From NCBI GenBank assembly GCA_000004695.1, contig CM000151.3, forward strand, positions 5,216,001 to 5,280,000: a DNA stretch of 64,000 bases, given 5' to 3'. The stretch is from Dictyostelium discoideum (lineage: Eukaryota). Each line of letters starts with the position of its first letter. Position 1 is the first letter of the stretch. This document shows positions 9,979 to 46,157 of the stretch, in pieces. Position numbers and translations under genes: made by a program. The notes beneath the pieces were generated by a model. That model had not been told where the DNA came from, did not search any database, and worked only from the letters and a program-made list of their open reading frames with translations.

Positions 9979-12895
<2,917 letters not shown>

Positions 12896-24499: not shown

Positions 24500-24853
24500 T
24501 TAATTACAACCACATTGAGTTGGTTGACCACCTCCATTCATTGATCCATTTCCACCGACACTAACTCCGATATTTGCATTTGGTGCACCACCACCACCCA
24601 AAACACCATCTAATAAACCACCAAGTAAACCTTTACTTCGTCCTAAAACATCTCCCAATAAACCAGAACTTGAGCTTCCTCCACATGAAATACTATTTGA
24701 TGCAGCACTAACAGTTGAAAGGGAACCAGTAGTTCATTGCTTTGGGTTTGATAATGTAATTATTGATGCTTTTTTAATAATTTAAATATTTAGTACTTGA
24801 TTTATAAAATAAAAAAATTAATATAATATAAAAACCTTACCAATGATTGTCAT
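24500..24853 (-). pseudogene. hssA/B-like (HssA/2C/7E family) small Gly/Ser-rich protein gene carrying an in-frame TGA. Exons 24841..24853 and 24500..24778.
   Basis: On the minus strand, ATGACAATCATTG|GTAAGG encodes MTII. The acceptor ttattaaaaaAG|CATCAATAATT continues ASIITLSNPKQ, then TGA, then TTGSLSTVSAASNSISCGGSSSSGLLGDVLGRSKGLLGGLLDGVLGGGGAPNANIGVSVGGNGSMNGGGQPTQCGCN*. The MTI.. start, internal CGG and terminal CGCN are hallmarks of the hssA/B-like family. No alternative splice removes the TGA. Confidence 0.45.
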
Positions 24854-25461
24854 TTTTAATTTTTATTTTTTAAATAATATTTTGATTTATAAAATAAAAT
24901 ATAATTTTTTTTTTTTCTTTTATACCTTTTTTTTTTTTTTGAAAAAAAAAAAAAAAAAAAAAAAAAAAGATTAATTGAATAGAGTAAACAAAATAATTTA
25001 AAAAATGGAACCATTTATAAATTAAATACCAACAGGTTTATAATTATTTAGTTAACCATGAAATTATTGTATTTTTATCTGGAAAAAACTTTTAAAACAA
25101 TTATTATTACTTTTTTTTATTAAAATACAACACACCCACAAAAACTTGTAAAAAATAAATTTTAATTTATATAAAAAAAAAAATGTTGAAGATAATTTTA
25201 AGATTTATACTATTTTATTACAGATTTGGTTGGATATTTTGAATTAAGTGATAGTTTAAAATTATTTTTTTTATATTTAAAGATGAGATAATTTGTTTAA
25301 TATATGGTTATTGTTATTCGAAAATTATTGTTGGTTTAAAAAACAATAACATTGAAATTATAACAAAAACAAAGTGTTATGGATTAATAAAGTATTTAAT
25401 TTAAAAGATCTTTTTTTTTTATAAATGGTATTCAAAATTAAAATTAATTTAATTTACAGTT

Positions 25462-25492
<31 letters not shown>

Positions 25493-27217
25493 CTTCTTTT
25501 GATTTTAATAAAAATTTGATGATGAGATGATAATAAATTTCTCTTTATTAGGATAATTCTTTGATGATCATTCTCAAAACAGATGCCCAAAATACAGTTT
25601 TTATTTTCATCATTAAATCAACAAAGTTATCCATAATACGATCTTTAATAAGGCGATAAAACTTATTCATTTATTATTATAAAAATCACTACACTACTAT
25701 TTTATTGTTGTTGTTGTTGTAATGCTTTCAATTGATGAAAAGACTATTGATAAACGAGTTTGTAATTGTTGTTGAAATATTACACCACAAACTATCACTG
25801 AATTATCAACAAAGGATGTTGGTGATGGTGCACTACTATATTCATTTCATTTTTGGCATATGAATTAATTTTTTTTATCTTTTTTGGTTTTGTTTATTAT
25901 TTGGAGAACCTGAACGACAAAATCCCTATATTATTATTATTATTATTATTTATTTGTTTATTAATTTAAAACAATTGATTGTTTTTTTTTTAAAAAACAT
26001 ATTTTTATATTTTTATTATAAATCATATAAAGAAAATAATTTATTTTAAATTTCAAAGAGATAAAGAGGGTGTTTGTGTGAAATAATTTATATTTTTCAA
26101 ACTCCAACACCAATTTTTTTTTTTAAAAACTATTTTCCCAATTATTAAAAATTACTTAATTTGTTTAAATTAATTTTCTTTTCCAAATGACAAATATTTG
26201 AATTATTTTAATAATTATTTTTTTTATTTTAATTTATTTTAAAGAAGAGATTAAATTATAAATTCTCATTTTTAAAGAATTATGTGAAAACATTAATTTG
26301 AATATAAAAAAAAATAAAATTTTTTTTTTTTATATATTATTTTATAAAATATTAAAAAAAAGAAATATATAAATAATAAAATGACCATTACTTGTAATTA
26401 TTTCTATATTTTTTATTTATTTTAAATTTATTAGTTTAAAACATATTAAAATATTTTTATTTTTAAAATAATTATTTAGATTCAATTGTTAATTTTTTAA
26501 ACCAAAAGGCTAGTGGATCTAATGGCGAAATTTCATCAAACATTGTTAGATTATCAAACTTTGGTAAAATTTCTGTTGCTGGTGGACATTGGAATAATGG
26601 AGGCCACTAGAATCATTGGAACAAAGGAGGAAATCATTGGTAAAAACTATAATTTATATTTTTTTGTTTTTAAAAAAAAATTTTATTTGTTTTTAATTAT
26701 CCAAAACTATATTTAATTTTGTTATTTTTTTTTTTTTTTTTTTTTTTTTTTGTCGATTTATTTTAATAGTTACATATTTATTTTTGTTATTTTTTTATTT
26801 TTGTTTTTTTAAAACAATCACATATTTATTTAATATTTTAATTTTTTTTAAAATAAAAAAAAAAAAATTTGGAATCCAAAAACCGACAATCAGATGCCTT
26901 GTATTTAAGTAAATAAATAAAAAAAAAATATAAAAACAAAAACCCCGATATTCTTAGTTTTTCGAAAAAAAAAAAAAAAATAAAAAAATAAAAAAAAAAC
27001 AAAAAAAAAAAAGATTTTTTTCGAAGGTTTTTTTGGATATTTTATGTCACCCAAAAATAAGTGTCAGAAAGTGTTTAATTTGATTTGTTTTTTTTTTTTT
27101 TTTTTTTTTTTTCTGAATTTATTTGCTCATCAAAAATAAAATTTTAAAAAAATGATCACATTAAAAAAAAAAAAAATTATACAACTTAATATTATTTAAA
27201 TTTTTCAAAACAAAGAC

Positions 27218-28505
27218 ATGACAATTGATTGGGACTCAATTCTTAGCTATAACACAATCAAAGTGGTTCGTATAAGAGACCGACGGCTTGGGTAATTTTT
27301 TAAATTTTAAAAGAGTTAATTCATTTTTATAAATTAAAATCTAATAAAAAAAAAAAAAATTTTAAAAAAAAAAAAAAAATAGAATTTTACATTTATGTTT
27401 TTTAATAGTAATTGTATTATATGTTGTTGTTTATTCGGCGATTATTAAAAAAGGTTATGTTACAACTGAAGAACCTGTTGGCTCAATTAGAACTTCATTA
27501 TTGGCTCCAGATGAATTAAAATCAAATCAAGCATATTGTAAAAATAATACAGAACCATATCCATATGAAAAATTAGATTGTGTTTATTATGATGAGAAAT
27601 TAGCTCTCTTTCCCATTGGTGATGATGTTGGATTTACGGCTTCCACTAGGATGAGAATTTCAGATCAAACCGTAAATTGTAGTTTAATGAATCCATCTTG
27701 TAAATTTTATACCAATACATCAATGAATGTTTATTTAGCAGATATTGAAAGTTTTACAGTTTTAATTGATCATACAATGTATGCACCATCTTCTCAAATT
27801 CAATTTAATGGTGATGATTTAAGTGGATATGTTTTAGATCAAAATGGTAATGAAATTCAATTAAATGAATCTGTAAATACAATTGGTGTTCAAGGTAAAC
27901 CTGATATTTTACAACTTGGAAAATTATTAGAATTTGCTGGTGTTGATTTAGATGGACCTTGTAAGTTTTTTTTTAAAGAAAAAAATAATAATAATAATAA
28001 AATTATTTATTTATTTATTTATTTTAATGTATTATATATAATAATAGCGTTAGTAAATTCAAGTAATTCAATTAGATATGATGGATGTGTTTTATTTGTA
28101 TTTATTGAATATTCAAATACATTTTCATATGATTTAAAAAAGATTAAATATGTTTATTCAATTAAAAAAGTTGATGATACTGCTTATGATGTACCAGAAG
28201 TTATTATTTTAAATAATGAAAATTCAAGATTATATTATAAACGTCATGCAATTAGATTAATTTTCATTCAAACTGGTGTAATTGGTTCATTCAATTTTCA
28301 ATCATTACTTTTAACATTAGTTAGTGGTCTTGGTTTATTAACTGTATCAACTTTAATTGTTGATCAATTGGCAATTAGATTTTTACCACAAAGAAAATCT
28401 TATAGTTCACTTAAATTCCAAACAACTGAAAGTTTTAGAATGAAAAAAAAAATTGTAAATGATGATGGTGAAGATAAACTTTATCATAATATTGAAGCTC
28501 TATAA
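27218..28505 (+). CDS. P2X receptor family protein (ATP-gated channel), paralog 1. Exons 27218..27291, 27383..27960 and 28048..28505.
   Basis: Exon 1 encodes MTIDWDSILSYNTIKVVRIRDRRLG, the diagnostic P2X N-terminus. The donor CTTGG|GTAATT and acceptor aaaatAG|AATTTTACATTT give GILHLCFLIVIVLYVVVYSAIIKKGYVTTEEPVGSIRTSL (TM1). The Cys-rich ectodomain follows (..CKNNTEPYPYEKLDCVYYDE..NCSLMNPSCKF..). A CCTT|GTAAGT...ataatAG|CG intron leads to TM2 and the C-tail. All phases were checked. Confidence 0.8.
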
Positions 28506-28863
28506 ATAATAATAATAACAATAAAATGGGAGAAATTTTTACCCTTTTTTAATGAAATTTTTACCCTTTTTAAAGATTAAAATTTTGATTTAATTGTTTA
28601 TTTTTTAAGATTTGTTTATTTTTTAATTTTAGAATTATTGATTTTTTTTTTTTTATATTTATTAATAATTGAGTTTTTTTTTTTTTATAATGAACCTTAA
28701 ATTAATTTAAAAAAAAAACCAATAATTTAAAAATAAAAAAGGGGGTGAATAATGTGTTGTAATTTGTAGATTTGTCACAATTAAAAGTGAAATATTTGTG
28801 TAAAAATGAATTTTGTTTGTTCAATTAATAATTGGACTGAAAAACGACTATCATAATATTGTT

Positions 28864-28895
<32 letters not shown>

Positions 28896-29117
28896 TAAAT
28901 CTAAAAATAAAAATTTAGTTTCAGGGCCTTTATTAAGAATATATTTTAATAGTACCCTTTTACCATTTTCTTATTTTGAATATTTCCAGATTTGGAAATT
29001 TTCTTTTTGGCTATTGGATTTTACTAGTATAATTGAAAGTAAACCATTTCTATTTGATTAAATTACTTTATAAAAAAAGAATATTAAAGTTAGATTATAA
29101 TTGTTATTTATTTATTT

Positions 29118-29153
<36 letters not shown>

Positions 29154-29420
29154 TTTTTCTAATCACTTTACCTTTCTTTTTTTTATTTTATGCTATCTAT
29201 CAACTTTTTTCTAAACCTTTTTAATTGTTAGAGTTAGATTTATTTTCTATTTGTTAATTTTCTTACATTTGTATTAATGATAATTTTTTTTTTTTTTTTT
29301 CAAAAAAGTTTCTATTTATACTCCATCAATTTTCAATTTTTATAATTATTTGAAATTAAAAAAAGGAAATTTTACTATTTTACTAGATAATATAATATAA
29401 TATATGAATCAATACCAATC

Positions 29421-29590
29421 AAATGATAGAGAAAGGAAAGATTTATCTATGCACTATATCATAAAGAAAGATTGATCATCATAATATATAAATATTATTT
29501 CTATACAAATAAAATGAAAACTCTACTCAAATGTCAGAGAAAGGAAAGATTTATCTATGCACTATGGCATTTTGAAAAGAGGATGATATC
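29421..29590 (+). repeat. Pair of ~40-bp direct repeats (caaatgNNagagaaaggaaagatttatctatgcactat) spaced ~100 bp apart in the inter-P2X spacer.
   Basis: Copy 1 at about 29421-29460 reads caaatgatagagaaaggaaagatttatctatgcactat. Copy 2 at about 29521-29560 reads caaatgtcagagaaaggaaagatttatctatgcactat. They are 36/38 identical and both relatively GC-rich for an intergenic region. Confidence 0.6.
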
Positions 29591-30209
29591 ATAAATAAAA
29601 AATTAGAATCCAAAAAACTAAAAATAAATTAAAAAAACTAAAAATAAAATTATAAGGTTTAATAAAATATATATATTATTTTTTTTTTTTTTTCTTTAAT
29701 TTTTTTTTTTTTTTAAGTAGGGTATTTTATATCTTTTTTTTTGCAAAAGAAAAAAAAAAAAAAATTGATTTTTTAATAACGTCATCAAGGCGTAATTTCA
29801 CAATTTTTTTTTATTTTGAAAATCAAAGAGAATTAAAATACCTTTTAAAAAAAAATTCTTTTTTACAAAAAATCAAGATATTTTGTAAAACTGTTTTTTT
29901 TTTTATTTTTTTTTTTTTTTTGTTAAAAAAAAGTGAAAAATTCTGAAAGTCTCTTCATCACTAAACTTATCATTGATTACTTTGACAAACAAGCAAATGT
30001 TATAAGTAATAAATAAATAAAAACTTATATATATAAATAAAATTAATAATAAAAATGTTAGATTGGGGTTTGTAATCTTTTTTTTTATTTTTTTATTTTT
30101 TTATTTTTTTTTTTTAAGTCTGTTTATTAATATAAGTTTCAAAAAAAAAAATGAATAAAGTAATTAATTTTGTTTTTTTTTTTATTATTATTATTATTTC
30201 TTAAGATTC

Positions 30210-30313
30210 TATTCTAGCCTATAACACAATCAAAGTGGTTCGAATAAGAGATAGGCGTCTTGGGTAACTTTTAAATTTTAAAAAAAGTATTAATTTTTAT
30301 AAATTAAAATCTA

Positions 30314-30359
<46 letters not shown>

Positions 30360-30532
30360 CCTTCATTTAATTTTTATGATTGCAATTATTTCATATGTTG
30401 TAATATATTCAGCAATTATTAAAAAAGGATATCTTTCAATAGAAGAACCTGTTGGTTCTATTAGGACCTCATTATGGAGTGTATGGTATCATTTATTAAA
30501 ATAATTTCAATAATTATAAAATGATGTTAATA

Positions 30533-30567
<35 letters not shown>

Positions 30568-31567
30568 AAAAGCCAAATCAATTTAATGGTAATGAATCAT
30601 ATTGTAAAAATAATGCAAAACCATATCCATATGAAAAATTAGATTGTGTTTATTATGATGACGCTTTAGCTCTCTATCCTATTGGTGATGATGTTGGCTT
30701 TACGGCGTCCACTAGGATTGAAATTTCAGATCAAAAGGCAAACTGTAGTTTAATGAATCCATCTTGTAAATTTAAAACCTTTAACTATAGTAATGTTTAT
30801 TTAGCAGATATTGAAAGTTTTACAGTTTTAATTGATCATACAATGTATGCACCATCTTCTCAAATTCAATTTAATGGTGGTGATTTAAGTGGATATGTTT
30901 TAGATCAAAATGGTAATGAAATTCAATTAAATGAATCTGTAAATGTAATTGGTGTTGAAGGTAAACCTGATGTACTTGAAATTAGTAAACTTTTAGAATT
31001 TGCTGGTGTTAATTTAGATGATCCATGTAAGTTTTTTTTTTTTTTTTTTTTTTTTTCTCAAAAATTATTAAATTTAAAAAAATAATTAATAATAATAATT
31101 ATATTATAGCATTGACAAATTCAAGTAATCCAATTAGATATGATGGATGTGTTTTATTTGTATTTATTGAATATTCAAATACATTTTCATATGATTTGAA
31201 TAAAATTAAATATGTTTATTCAATTAAATTAGTTGATGATACAATTTATAATATACCAGAAGTAGTAATATTAGATGATGTAAATTCAAGATTATATTAT
31301 AAACGTCATGCAATTAGATTAATTTTCATTCAAACTGGTGTAATTGGTTCATTCAATTTTCAATCATTACTTTTAACATTAGTTAGTGGTCTTGGTTTAT
31401 TAACTGTATCAACTTTAATTGTTGATCAATTGGCAATTAGATTTTTACCACAAAGAAAATCTTATAGTTCACTTAAATTCCAAACAACTGAAAGTTTTAA
31501 AATGAAAAAAAAAATTGTAAATGATGATGGTGAAGATAAACTTTATCATAACATTGAAGCTCTATAA
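30210..31567 (+). CDS. P2X receptor family protein, paralog 2 (tandem duplicate; 5' end and start codon unresolved). Exons ?..30263, 30357..30480, 30573..31026 and 31110..31567.
   Basis: This copy is about 80% identical to paralog 1 across exon 1 (..DSILAYNTIKVVRIRDRRLG), intron 1 and the downstream exons (GILHLIFMIAIISYVVIYSAIIKKGYLSIEEPVGSIRTSLWS | PNQFNGNESYCKNNAKPYPYEKLDCVYYDD..). It has one extra phase-0 intron (AGT|GTATGG..aaaaAG|CCAAAT). The in-frame ATG at 30151 is followed by TAA at 30202 before the conserved block. Confidence 0.65.
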
Positions 31568-31684
31568 ATAATAATATTAATAATAATACTTTTAATTTTA
31601 ACTTTTTTCCAAATAATTCTTGTGTTTTATAAATTTTTAATATTTAAATAAACTATTTTTTTATGTAATTCTAAAATAGTTAAA

Positions 31685-31733
<49 letters not shown>

Positions 31734-31916
31734 TCACACCAGATTCTAAATAGTTTAATTTTTTTTTTTTTTTTTTTTTTTGGATGGTAATGGTCATTCT
31801 TTCACCTTGTCATTTTGTTTTTTCCTCTCAAATATCAAATTTTGGATTTTATAAATATATTTTTTATTATAAAATATGTGCAGGGTAATATCTTTTTTTT
31901 TTTTGTTTTTGTTTTT

Positions 31917-31956
<40 letters not shown>

Positions 31957-32145
31957 CTAAATTCGTCAAACATAATATGGATGGGGATACTATAATTTTT
32001 TTTGTTAAATTATTAGTTATTATAACTGTTGTTAAATATTTAATAGCCGTATTACTATTAAAGAGTTTAAAGAAGAACTTATGATTAAATTTTTAAACTT
32101 ATAATTATCAATCACTTGGTCATTAATTTTGTAGGTTGTATTGAT

Positions 32146-32179
<34 letters not shown>

Positions 32180-32287
32180 TTCATAACCCACGTTTTAACT
32201 TTATATTTTTTAATTAGCTATTAGATTTAGTAGTGCACTATACTCAATAAAATAATTTAAGATAAATAAAGGTTGTTTTTTTTAAAA

Positions 32288-44667: not shown

Positions 44668-46157
44668 ATGAGATTATTAGTTTTATTCCTTTTATTAACT
44701 CTAACTTTTTCAAATTTAATTGTAAGTTTTAATATTAAATTCTAAAATAAAAATTAAATTATAAAATTATTAACATTTTTAATTAGAATGCAGATAATTC
44801 AAAATCATCTTCATTGGAATCATCAAATGCACATGATTTATCATCTCCATCACCCTTAATTCAACCAAAACCTTCTGAAAATCAAGCAGGTATTCCAGCA
44901 TCTGGAAAACCAATTGATCCCAAAAAGGAAGTTGTAACTCTATCATCTTCTCCTTCAGTTTCACCAAGCTCTTCTCCAAGCTCATCACCATCATCCTCAC
45001 CATCTGTCTCCCCAAGCTCTTCACCTTCATCATCACCAAGTTCTTCCCCAAGTTCTTCACCAAGTTCTTCTCCTTCATCCTTACCATCTTCTTCACCATC
45101 AGTCCAACCAAGCTCTTCACCAAGTTCTTCACCTTCATCTTCACCATCAGCTCAACCAAGTTCCTCACCATCTTCTTCACAATCAGTCCAACCAAGCTCC
45201 TCCCCAAGCTCCTCACCATCCACCACCCCAAGTTCACCAAGTGAAACTCATTCATCATCATCCCATTCACAAGATTCTTCAGCACCAAGAGGTGTAGGAA
45301 AAATGGTAGTCCCAGCTGATAACAAAGAAACTGGATCATCATCATCAAATTCACAAGATTCATCTGCATCATCTTCTCAAGCTCCATCATCTTCATCATC
45401 TCATGGTTCATCTGAATCTTCTGCTCAAGGATCATCAGAACAAAATTCATCAGAACAAAATGGCTCTAAAAAATTGGTAGTCCCAGCCAGTGATAACAAA
45501 GAAGTTTCATCATCACATGGTTCATCTGCATCATCACAAGCACCATCATCTTCACATAGTTCTTCAGAATCTTCCCCAAATACTGCTTCTTCACATGAAT
45601 CTTCCCATGATGTATCATCCAATAATCCATCTTCAGAATCATCAGAAAATACTGCTTCTTTACATGCCTCTTCTCATGATTCTTCTTCTCATGCCTCTTC
45701 TCATGATGCTGCTTCTCACGCCTCTTCTCATGATGCTGCTTCTCATGCCTCTGCTCATGATGCTTCTTCACATGCCTCTTCTCATGATGCTGCTTCTCAC
45801 GCCTCTTCTCATGATGCTTCTTCACATGCCTCTTCTTCACATGATTCAAAAGCACCAAATGGAATTGGAAAATTAGTAGTCCCAGCTGATAACAAACAAA
45901 CTGGCTCGCACTCATCCAATTCTCAATCTGAAGAAAACTCAAAGGATAATTCATCAAATTCACAAGATTCATCAGCATCATCTTCTCAAGCACCATCATC
46001 TTCAAATTCTCATAGTTCATCTGAACCATCAACCAACAAAACCATTGAATCAAATGAAGACAAGAAATCTTCATCATCTCAAGCTGGTTCTCACACCTCC
46101 TCTTTATCAGAAAAATCACCAGCATTTCACCAATCTAGTTCCTCATCCAAACAATAG
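44668..46157 (+). CDS. Secreted Ser/Pro-rich mucin-like repetitive protein. Exons 44668..44721 and 44787..46157.
   Basis: The signal peptide MRLLVLFLLLTLTFSNLI ends at ATT|GTAAGT. The acceptor aattAG|AATGCAGAT is in frame with the ORF at 44814..46157. The body contains (SPSSS)n and (SHDAAS/SHASSHD)n tandem repeats, and a KLVVPAD/S motif recurs three times. The long antisense ORFs across this region are repeat artefacts. Confidence 0.6.

Follow-up and report, generated by a model that had tools for sequence, protein, structure and literature searches.

The stretch of Dictyostelium discoideum DNA analyzed here (64,000 nucleotides, referred to below as the window) holds the known adjacent genes p2xB and p2xC, which were characterized earlier (PMC2787382, PMC3774368). 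Both had already been annotated, cloned, knocked out and recorded electrophysiologically, so that nothing is added to the gene catalogue; what emerges is a modest new evolutionary detail on known genes. We consider it highly probable that these genes, identified as p2xB and p2xC, go back to one old tandem duplication, that p2xB has since lost introns, and that gene conversion has repeatedly made parts of the two copies alike. The evidence includes a mosaic: from codon 276 to the end the coding sequences cluster by species, whereas codons 67-275 cluster by orthology.

The p2xB and p2xC genes and their products

The product of the first copy (27218-28505) has 369 amino acids and is identical to P2XB_DICDI (DDB_G0275293, Q553Y1, XP_643830.2), while that of the second (30055-31567), with 368 amino acids, is identical to P2XC_DICDI (DDB_G0275191, Q553Y0, XP_643831.1). 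This exact identity bears out a preliminary description of the region as a tandem pair of Dictyostelium P2X receptor genes, in which the copies were still to be named by protein comparison; its outer limits, the ATG of copy 1 at 27218 and the stop codon of copy 2 at 31567, were also exact. The genes lie head-to-tail on the forward strand, with 2,837 nt from ATG to ATG and 3,062 nt from stop to stop. Their proteins are 85% identical, and two collinear blastn blocks link them (1,206 nt at 84% and 273 nt at 71%), far beyond chance. It had been suggested that the pair might belong to a P2X cluster. Five P2X genes of the contractile vacuole are known, and these are indeed two of them (PMC2787382), but a larger cluster was not found: a tblastn search of the window returned p2xB and p2xC only. 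Neither the intergenic region nor the rest of the window contains ncRNA or tRNA genes according to Rfam gathering thresholds and a tRNA search.

From ATG to stop, p2xB (27218..28505) has three exons (27218-27291, 27383-27960 and 28048-28505), separated by introns I-b (27292..27382; 91 nt, phase 2, GT..AG) and I-d (27961..28047; 87 nt, phase 1), the latter at a position common to p2xC, p2xA and D. purpureum. The p2xC gene (30055..31567) has five (30055-30067, 30206-30263, 30357-30480, 30573-31026 and 31110-31567). Its introns are I-a (30068..30205; 138 nt, phase 1, GTTTGT..AG), which follows MLDW and is needed for an open frame, I-b (30264..30356; 93 nt, phase 2), I-c (30481..30572; 92 nt, phase 0, between SLWS and PNQF) and I-d (31027..31109; 83 nt, phase 1). 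Intron I-c is the additional phase-0 intron of the preliminary description, which placed it exactly and also quoted correctly the linker peptides after TM1 in both copies. The beginning of p2xC had been misjudged, with a start implied near 30150: the true ATG is at 30055, in a 13-nt exon that had been missed together with I-a (30068-30205). The model starting there is the sole one with an open frame and matches the reference P2XC residue for residue. A start at ATG 30152 (ATGAATAAA followed by gtaatt…) was tried and rejected, as no acceptor restores the frame, which reads MNKVINF… and then a stop. A published cDNA primer, ATGTTAGATTGGG joined directly to ATTCTATTCTAG, crosses the I-a junction and is non-contiguous in the genome, but the primer itself imposes the junction and is thus not independent verification. 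The Ax2 cDNA clones match the predicted p2xC coding sequence at 100% and back the I-c junctions. For p2xB, the cDNA primers of Ludlow 2009 fall at 27218 and 28510.

Both products match the Pfam family PF00864 (P2X_receptor) above the cut-off of 27, with 73.8 bits for P2XB and 70.5 bits for P2XC, and all 32 of their best database relatives carry PF00864. Hydrophobic stretches at about residues 24-46 and 301-327 indicate two TM segments around a large ectodomain; protease protection has been described for all five Dictyostelium P2X proteins (PMC2787382). The TM1 region of human P2X1 aligns with residues 9-64 and its TM2 region with residues 270-346, and the solved P2X1/2/4 chains match over both regions. 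With vertebrate P2X1-7 (8zt5, 9ddv, 9bqh, 4dw1) the likeness consists of PF00864, the aligned TM1 and TM2 regions (E-values 1e-11 to 1e-9) and, from the literature, the trimeric ATP-gated channel. The N-terminal YxTx(K/R) motif is found as YNTIK at residue 11 of P2XB and 10 of P2XC, and the post-TM2 YxxxK motif as YSSLK at residues 336 and 335, respectively. The vertebrate receptors have 10 ectodomain cysteines, whereas P2XB and P2XC have only 5 each. Ten conserved ectodomain cysteines are a feature of metazoan P2X receptors; non-metazoan ones are known to lack this set, which is no criterion for the wider family. Two N-terminal ATP-binding lysines after TM1, K68/K70 in human P2X1 numbering, are also characteristic of the vertebrate proteins, and the aligned positions are not conserved in P2XB and P2XC: phmmer pairs 'svsvKl' of P2X1 with 'sirtSl', and the next residue is Leu65 in P2XB, Trp64 in P2XC and Lys67 in P2XA. 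The pair is conserved but not required for P2X membership, since P2XB, without it, is an ATP-gated channel (PMC2787382). Other differences from the vertebrate receptors are the intracellular location, Na+ inhibition and Cl- permeability in Dictyostelium (PMC2787382).

The closest point of comparison is P2XA, the first intracellular P2X receptor, located in the contractile vacuole, which has the same family assignment and topology and about 60% identity to the p2xB and p2xC products. It shares with them the N-terminal YxTxK, the KRH lysine, the TM2 VDQ aspartate and the C-terminal YSSLK, and its gene shares introns I-a, I-c and I-d with p2xC and is without I-b. P2XA differs in that Lys67, in 'SLK', is the equivalent of vertebrate K70, where P2XB has Leu and P2XC Trp, and in that its gene lies elsewhere, with no P2X neighbor within 3 kb.

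P2XB is a weak ATP-gated channel, with an EC50 of 266 uM and inhibited by Na+, while P2XC alone gave no ATP-evoked current in either oocytes or HEK cells, whatever the condition tested, and does not rescue regulatory volume decrease in p2xA-null cells (PMC2787382, PMC3774368). The missing currents and the missing rescue would suit a decaying or non-functional duplicate, a reading that we find very improbable in view of the state of the gene. In seven genomes the p2xC reading frame is intact (367-369 aa) and its splice sites are conserved. The gene is under purifying selection: compared with the orthologues of D. citrinum, D. dimigraforme and D. firmibasis, its dN/dS is 0.08, 0.15 and 0.27, respectively. 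Equally against decay, p2xC cDNA was cloned from vegetative cells, tagged P2XC reaches the contractile vacuole, and co-expression of P2XC abolishes P2XB currents, which the paper gives as data not shown (PMC2787382, PMC3774368); this last effect implies assembly of the two.

Age of the duplication and intron history

The preliminary description regarded the duplication as recent and as including intron 1 and the 5' flank, with copy 2 gaining an intron and changing its linker afterwards. The 85% identity of the proteins, the 99% nucleotide identity of the 3' ends and the likeness of the first 55 nt of I-b all speak for such an origin, which is nonetheless very improbable when other genomes are considered, the same pair in the same synteny being found in at least four other species. 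The arrangement, p2xB followed by p2xC, recurs in D. citrinum, D. dimigraforme and D. firmibasis and in three other assemblies of the D. discoideum complex, flanked in all six by an NmrA-like gene and an adh_short gene. These assemblies are not mis-annotated or contaminated copies of AX4, because their nucleotide sequence differs by 2-20%. Moreover, the ectodomains group by orthology: for codons 67-275 the B group and the C group each received 199 of 200 bootstraps, in a grouping that excludes D. firmibasis. Over the genes, bootstraps were 300/300 for the clade of B plus C, 300/300 for B of D. discoideum, D. citrinum and D. dimigraforme, and 300/300 for C. The B and C genes of D. firmibasis group together even in the ectodomain (130/200 and 181/300 bootstraps). 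An independent duplication in that species is formally conceivable; against it speak the synteny and the B-specific loss of I-a, both of which this species has in common with the others.

Over codons 1-275 the paralogue dS (0.27-0.43) is no larger than the orthologue dS (0.27-0.47), which may reflect either saturation or bias at synonymous sites in this AT-rich genome or low-level exchange in the 5' two-thirds, and therefore the duplication is not datable from dS. Judged by synteny and trees, the pair is older than the separation of D. discoideum, D. citrinum and D. dimigraforme, and very probably older than that of D. firmibasis also. A single tandem duplication would have occurred between the divergence from D. 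purpureum and the discoideum/citrinum/dimigraforme (most probably also firmibasis) radiation.

The distribution of introns reverses the polarity that had been proposed, in which copy 2 acquired the extra intron. At the I-c position (phase 0, after SLxx) an intron is present in p2xA, p2xD, D. purpureum, all p2xC genes and the p2xB genes of three species, a recurrence at an identical position that also goes against a recent duplication; the p2xB genes of D. citrinum, D. dimigraforme and D. firmibasis have an intron of 77-122 nt exactly at this site. It is not present in p2xB of the AX4, W, Y and Z assemblies, where the sequence runs …GCT^CC(A/G)… across the site without an indel; in AX4 the loss site lies at 27506..27507 (TTGGCT^CCAGAT). 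Position and phase of I-a are likewise common to p2xC of five genomes, p2xA, p2xD and D. purpureum. The comparison indicates that I-c is ancestral, not gained by p2xC, that p2xB of the D. discoideum clade lost it precisely, and that I-a is ancestral too. The ancestral gene would have had four introns (I-a to I-d), all of them kept by p2xC, whereas p2xB would have lost I-a early and I-c later, within the D. discoideum clade, in what we infer to be a precise excision. The linker change had also been assigned to copy 2. It is more likely to have arisen in p2xB, because all p2xC genes, and p2xB of D. firmibasis as well, have SLWSP, an argument made ambiguous by conversion in that species. The 430-aa 'P2XB' of D. 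cf. discoideum Y resisted modeling, and no canonical gene model fits it; a normal TAA stop is present in this p2xB, so that the extension is an annotation artefact.

Concerted evolution of the 3' end

The most similar parts of the two genes are 28220..28505 in p2xB, which covers the end of the ectodomain, TM2, the C-terminal tail and the stop codon, and its partner 31282..31567 in p2xC, with 2 differences in 286 nt. The longest identical run between the genes is 218 nt, a length reached in 0 of 100,000 permutations, and third positions differ at 1 of 94 sites compared with 54 of 274 (Fisher P = 1e-6). As an alternative to conversion, this identity could be ascribed to very strong purifying selection acting on TM2 and the C-terminal tail, given that all P2X receptors are most conserved in this part of the protein and that orthologue dN is very low there (0.004-0.04). 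However, synonymous sites of the same codons diverge freely between species: from codon 276 to the end, orthologue dS is 0.21-0.30, whereas paralogue dS within species is 0.017-0.10 (in AX4, 0.017 between B and C, compared with 0.30 for both of the orthologue pairs formed with D. citrinum), and 13 of 95 third positions differ between species compared with 1-7 of 95 between paralogues within species. Identity over these codons is 94.4-98.9% between B and C within species and 88-94% between orthologues. In the corresponding tree the paralogues pair by species, with bootstraps of 199, 169, 199 and 168 of 200, and both paralogues share species-specific substitutions, such as GLIGSF, SSFKF and IETL in D. 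firmibasis. Selection as the sole cause is, given these data, most unlikely, and the last ~285 nt of coding sequence evolve in concert, homogenized by gene conversion.

The similarity that had been ascribed to intron 1 and the 5' flank stands only for the intron. The first ~55 nt of I-b are about 85% identical between p2xB and p2xC, with a local score of 70 compared with 25 +/- 4 for shuffles (z = 11), and this shared motif is specific to D. discoideum, not being seen in the orthologues of D. citrinum or D. dimigraforme. For the 5' flanks the best alignment is a poly-T run with a score of 50, which is reached by 76% of other AT-rich 300-nt windows of the same 64-kb stretch; flanks no more alike than random AT-rich sequence again disfavor a recent duplication. 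Homology of the p2xB upstream region to that of p2xC or to intron I-a of p2xC was considered and discarded, as it consists of poly-T runs only, not above the AT-rich background. There is no significant similarity between the I-d introns (27961-28047 and 31027-31109; z = 1.3), nor are the 3' flanks similar on direct test (z = 0.2), a blastn block extending ~180 nt past the stop codon being driven by low complexity.

The high similarity of the 3' ends and the partial similarity of intron 1 can be put down to gene conversion. Non-allelic conversion between copies ~3 kb apart would have repeatedly homogenized patches, mainly the last ~285 nt of coding sequence (TM2 and cytosolic tail), independently in every species, while the ectodomain diverged and evolved by orthology. 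Exon 1 and the start of intron I-b would form a second patch in D. discoideum, and in isolate Z the entire 5' end of p2xC would have been converted. We infer non-allelic recombination between p2xB and p2xC as the mechanism of exchange. Concerted evolution of tandem paralogues by non-allelic gene conversion is a general, well-known process, and the pair resembles such systems in the same orientation and ~3 kb spacing of its genes and in its mosaic, with one segment grouping by species with homogenized synonymous sites and its neighbor by orthology. Our literature search found no report of gene conversion in Dictyostelium P2X genes.

Between the genes, an AX4/Ax2-specific segment of about 1.16 kb (28527..29685), outside the duplication, is absent from all six other assemblies. 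It shows no terminal inverted repeats and no ORF longer than 82 aa, as signs of a mobile element, and no second copy of it was found in the window or in seven other loci compared. The two genes are adjacent on AX4 chromosome 2, with consecutive accessions (XP_643830/XP_643831) on one 8,484,197-nt contig, and the pair is therefore not a mis-assembly, as the preliminary description had allowed for if the copies were non-adjacent in the reference. Every one of the genomic primers of Ludlow 2009 maps a single time, at the expected place. That one gene was assembled twice, or two distant genes collapsed side by side, is hardly conceivable, with nothing to suggest it beyond the general risk in AT-rich, repeat-rich genomes, when 121 of 1,104 aligned coding positions differ between the copies, which also have unequal numbers of introns, the arrangement is repeated in six independent assemblies, and the published knock-out arms come from amplification across the intergenic region (primers at 28473/29781 and 28940/30200).

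A possible role for P2XC

Homogenization of TM2 and the tail might be favored, beyond what proximity produces neutrally, if P2XC is a conserved regulatory (dominant-negative or heteromeric) partner of P2XB that has to retain the same pore and assembly module even as its luminal ectodomain diverges. This suggestion is tentative, and we would not rate it as probable; it is prompted by the purifying selection on p2xC (dN/dS 0.08-0.27) in spite of the lack of currents of P2XC alone, by a converted tract that covers exactly TM2 and the tail, and by the abolition of P2XB currents by P2XC (data not shown in the original paper).

The p2xB/p2xC pair represents a case of mosaic concerted evolution, along with stepwise and precisely datable intron loss, in a pair of protist ion channels. 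Purifying selection on p2xC means that the "silent" P2XC subunit is maintained by selection, which supports the search for a heteromeric or regulatory role over the view of a dead duplicate. The similarity of tandem paralogues such as these is no guide to the age of their duplication.

Identity and structure of the two genes

Three-frame translation of 26800-32200, in a window that is strongly AT-rich (GC 0.11-0.35 per kb), revealed a collinear pair of frames on the + strand, both P2X-like. The spliced translation of copy 1 (27218-27291, 27383-27960 and 28048-28505, +; two GT..AG introns of 91 and 87 nt) has 369 aa, and that of copy 2 (30055-30067, 30206-30263, 30357-30480, 30573-31026 and 31110-31567, +) has 368 aa. 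The pair reported in the preliminary description is thus real and its coordinates were largely exact, except for where copy 2 starts: the ATG near 30150 that they implied leads into no open frame, and translation is complete only with the ATG at 30055, followed by an exon of 13 nt (ATGTTAGATTGGG) and a phase 1 intron of 138 nt (30068-30205, +). In the protein collection, copy 1 matches exactly P2XB_DICDI (Q553Y1, DDB_G0275293, XP_643830.2) and copy 2 P2XC_DICDI (Q553Y0, DDB_G0275191, XP_643831.1), so that the copies are p2xB and p2xC, genes already known. Both accessions are consecutive and come from D. discoideum AX4, on one contig of 8,484,197 nt; the genes are therefore adjacent in the AX4 chromosome 2 reference, which disposes of the mis-assembly that non-adjacent reference genes were to reveal.

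P2XB and P2XC share 85% of their residues in an alignment free of internal gaps, score 73.8 (P2XB) and 70.5 bits (P2XC) against the Pfam P2X_receptor profile (threshold 27), match the solved P2X1, P2X2 and P2X4 chains in their TM1 and TM2 regions, and carry the N-terminal YNTIK and post-TM2 YSSLK motifs. A third P2X gene was not found by tblastn within the 64-kb window. The genomic primers that have been published for p2xB and p2xC, covering cDNAs and knock-out arms, all have a single site in the window, where expected; the forward primer of the p2xC cDNA (ATGTTAGATTGGG/ATTCTATTCTAG) is non-contiguous in the genome because it crosses the junction of the first intron. Ax2 cDNA clones were a 100% match to the predicted p2xA, p2xB and p2xC coding sequences (Ludlow et al., 2009; PMC2787382), which verifies the internal p2xC splice junctions, including that of the intron at 30481-30572 described previously; the first junction is not independently verified by cDNA, since the forward primer spans it (PMC2787382). 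Elsewhere in the window, a GC-rich island at 44790-46157 (+; GC 0.42, GC skew -0.49) corresponds to a long Ser/Pro/His-rich low-complexity frame in which SSPSSSP and SHDAASHAS repeats occur and the unit VVPADNK recurs.

Age of the pair and history of its introns

The loci of the closest relatives, namely D. firmibasis, D. citrinum, D. dimigraforme, D. discoideum isolate W and D. cf. discoideum isolates Y and Z, were compared. The head-to-tail p2xB-p2xC pair was present in all six assemblies, in most of them with genes for an NmrA-like protein of 305 aa and a short-chain dehydrogenase of 307 aa on either side. In the family tree, p2xB and p2xC form a clade (300/300 bootstraps), sister to p2xD-type genes and a D. 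purpureum gene, within which the discoideum/citrinum/dimigraforme genes group as p2xB (300/300) and p2xC (300/300); a nucleotide tree of codons 67-275 gave a B clade and a C clade, each in 199/200 bootstraps. Given this grouping by orthology, with the pair already in place in six other assemblies, the duplication is not recent, contrary to what had been proposed. The D. firmibasis genes show a tendency to group together (130/200 and 181/300 bootstraps), as they may after an independent duplication in that species, but synteny and the absence of the first intron specifically from p2xB are common to D. firmibasis and the other species. For this reason, conversion on a larger scale in D. firmibasis is the best explanation of the pairing.

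Four intron positions, I-a to I-d, were mapped from exact spliced models computed for all loci. I-a (phase 1, after DW; 30068-30205 in p2xC) is present in p2xC of five genomes, p2xA, p2xD and D. purpureum, and absent from every p2xB and from isolate Z p2xC. I-b (phase 2, RRL/G) is found in all B and C genes and, shifted by 1 nt, in D. purpureum, being absent from p2xA and p2xD. All p2xC genes, p2xA, p2xD, D. purpureum and p2xB of D. citrinum, D. dimigraforme and D. firmibasis contain I-c (phase 0, SLxx/P; 30481-30572), which is missing from p2xB of AX4, W, Y and Z. The last position, I-d (phase 1), is shared by all B and C genes, p2xA and D. purpureum and is absent from p2xD. According to this map, I-a and I-c of p2xC are ancestral. 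The loss of I-a from p2xB preceded the species radiation, that of I-c is recent and confined to the D. discoideum clade, so the acquisition of an additional intron by copy 2, as envisaged in the preliminary description, has its polarity reversed: I-c occurs in outgroup genes and is absent only from D. discoideum-clade p2xB. The flanks of I-c abut exactly in AX4, W and Z p2xB (…TTGGCT^CCAGAT… in AX4), and isolate Y p2xB is collinear with that of AX4, with no insertion at this site. The linker sequence is SLWSP in all p2xC and in D. firmibasis p2xB, and SLLAP in p2xB of the remaining species; like the introns, it probably changed in p2xB rather than in p2xC, which is less certain given conversion in D. 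firmibasis.

Some gene models deserve separate mention. In D. firmibasis p2xC, a (TAT)n microsatellite of ~200 nt has expanded I-d (10728-11025 of locus L001) to 298 nt, against 77-140 nt in its homologues elsewhere. The closest D. purpureum relative of p2xB/C, DICPUDRAFT_74417 (L006 6001-7656), has seven introns, four of which no examined P2X gene of the D. discoideum group contains, and its neighbours are different: actin genes on one side and a radical-SAM gene on the other. The deposited isolate Y p2xB product (L007 6001-7558) is 430 aa long and ends in an unrelated C-terminal sequence. The extension is artefactual: the annotation predicts an intron that passes over the normal stop codon, the TAA after …NIEAL (about L007 7263).

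Sequence exchange between p2xB and p2xC

Differences between the AX4 genes cluster strongly: they number 121 in 1,104 aligned coding sites, only 2 of them in the last 286 nt, and the longest identical run (218 nt) was reached in 0/100,000 permutations. Third positions differ at 1/94 sites in the last 95 codons versus 54/274 upstream (Fisher P = 1e-6), while orthologues differ at 13/95 third positions in these last codons. Over the same codons, dS between AX4 and D. citrinum is 0.30, for B and for C, and paralogue dS within species is 0.017 in AX4, 0.051 in D. citrinum, 0.103 in D. dimigraforme and 0.017 in D. firmibasis. In a tree of codons 276 to the end, paralogues pair by species (199, 169, 199 and 168 of 200 bootstraps), and there are species-specific substitutions common to both paralogues, for example in D. 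firmibasis. Constraint as the cause of the 3' identity is ruled out by the orthologue dS, the pairing by species and these shared substitutions; the near-identical 3' ends reflect concerted evolution. The converted tract ends no more than ~12 nt after the stop codon, and direct comparison showed the 3' flanks to be unrelated. Our literature search found no paper linking Dictyostelium P2X genes with gene conversion.

Exchange on a smaller scale has also affected the 5' end: in codons 1-25, paralogues are as similar as, or more similar than, orthologues. D. discoideum B and C have the first ~55 nt of I-b in common (z = 11), a similarity that does not extend to this intron in the D. citrinum or D. 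dimigraforme orthologues. The previously noticed likeness of the first introns is therefore genuine but, being specific to D. discoideum, reflects exchange between the copies and not a recent duplication; the 5' flanks, thought to have been duplicated as well, have nothing in common beyond poly-T runs. Isolate Z p2xC (L003 7695-9185) has a B-type first exon (74 nt, MAIDWDS…) and a B-like TM1 followed by a C-type ectodomain, and lacks I-a: here, gene conversion of the entire 5' end of p2xC carried intron loss from one paralogue to the other.

The spacer between the genes measures 1,549 nt in AX4, of which ~1.16 kb (28527-29685) is specific to the AX4/Ax2 lineage; in the other six assemblies, one of them likewise from D. 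discoideum, the spacer has ~400-770 nt. The AX4/Ax2-specific segment has no ORF >82 aa, tRNA or Rfam match, terminal inverted repeats or second copy in the window, which as a whole contains no tRNA genes and no Rfam matches at gathering thresholds. A 21-nt tandem duplication, GAAATTTTTACCCTTTTT(T)AA (28532-28574), lies at its left edge, and a direct repeat of ~80 nt (29419-29497 / 29527-29605) inside it. A second indel of ~670 nt distinguishes AX4 (24639-25307) from isolate W (L005 4374-4377), upstream of p2xB and near the NmrA-like gene.

Status and role of p2xC

P2XB forms a channel gated by ATP, with an EC50 of 266 uM, inhibition by Na+ and partial Cl- permeability; P2XC gave no current and, when co-expressed, abolished P2XB currents (data not shown in that paper; PMC2787382). 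P2XC was silent in every ionic and pH condition tested and did not rescue the osmoregulatory phenotype of the p2xA-null strain (Baines et al., 2013; PMC3774368). In seven genomes the p2xC frame is intact and its splice sites are conserved, and dN/dS with its orthologues is 0.08 for D. citrinum, 0.15 for D. dimigraforme and 0.27 for D. firmibasis; on the evidence available, the gene is alive and under purifying selection. This, together with the vacuolar localization of P2XC (PMC2787382) and its dominant-negative effect on P2XB, makes a modulatory or heteromeric subunit its most likely role. That homogenization of TM2 and the tail was selected for such a role, rather than merely tolerated, we consider unlikely. 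What these results bring to a known gene pair is new detail, sound and ordinary in kind: mosaic gene conversion, stepwise intron loss and purifying selection on a silent subunit.
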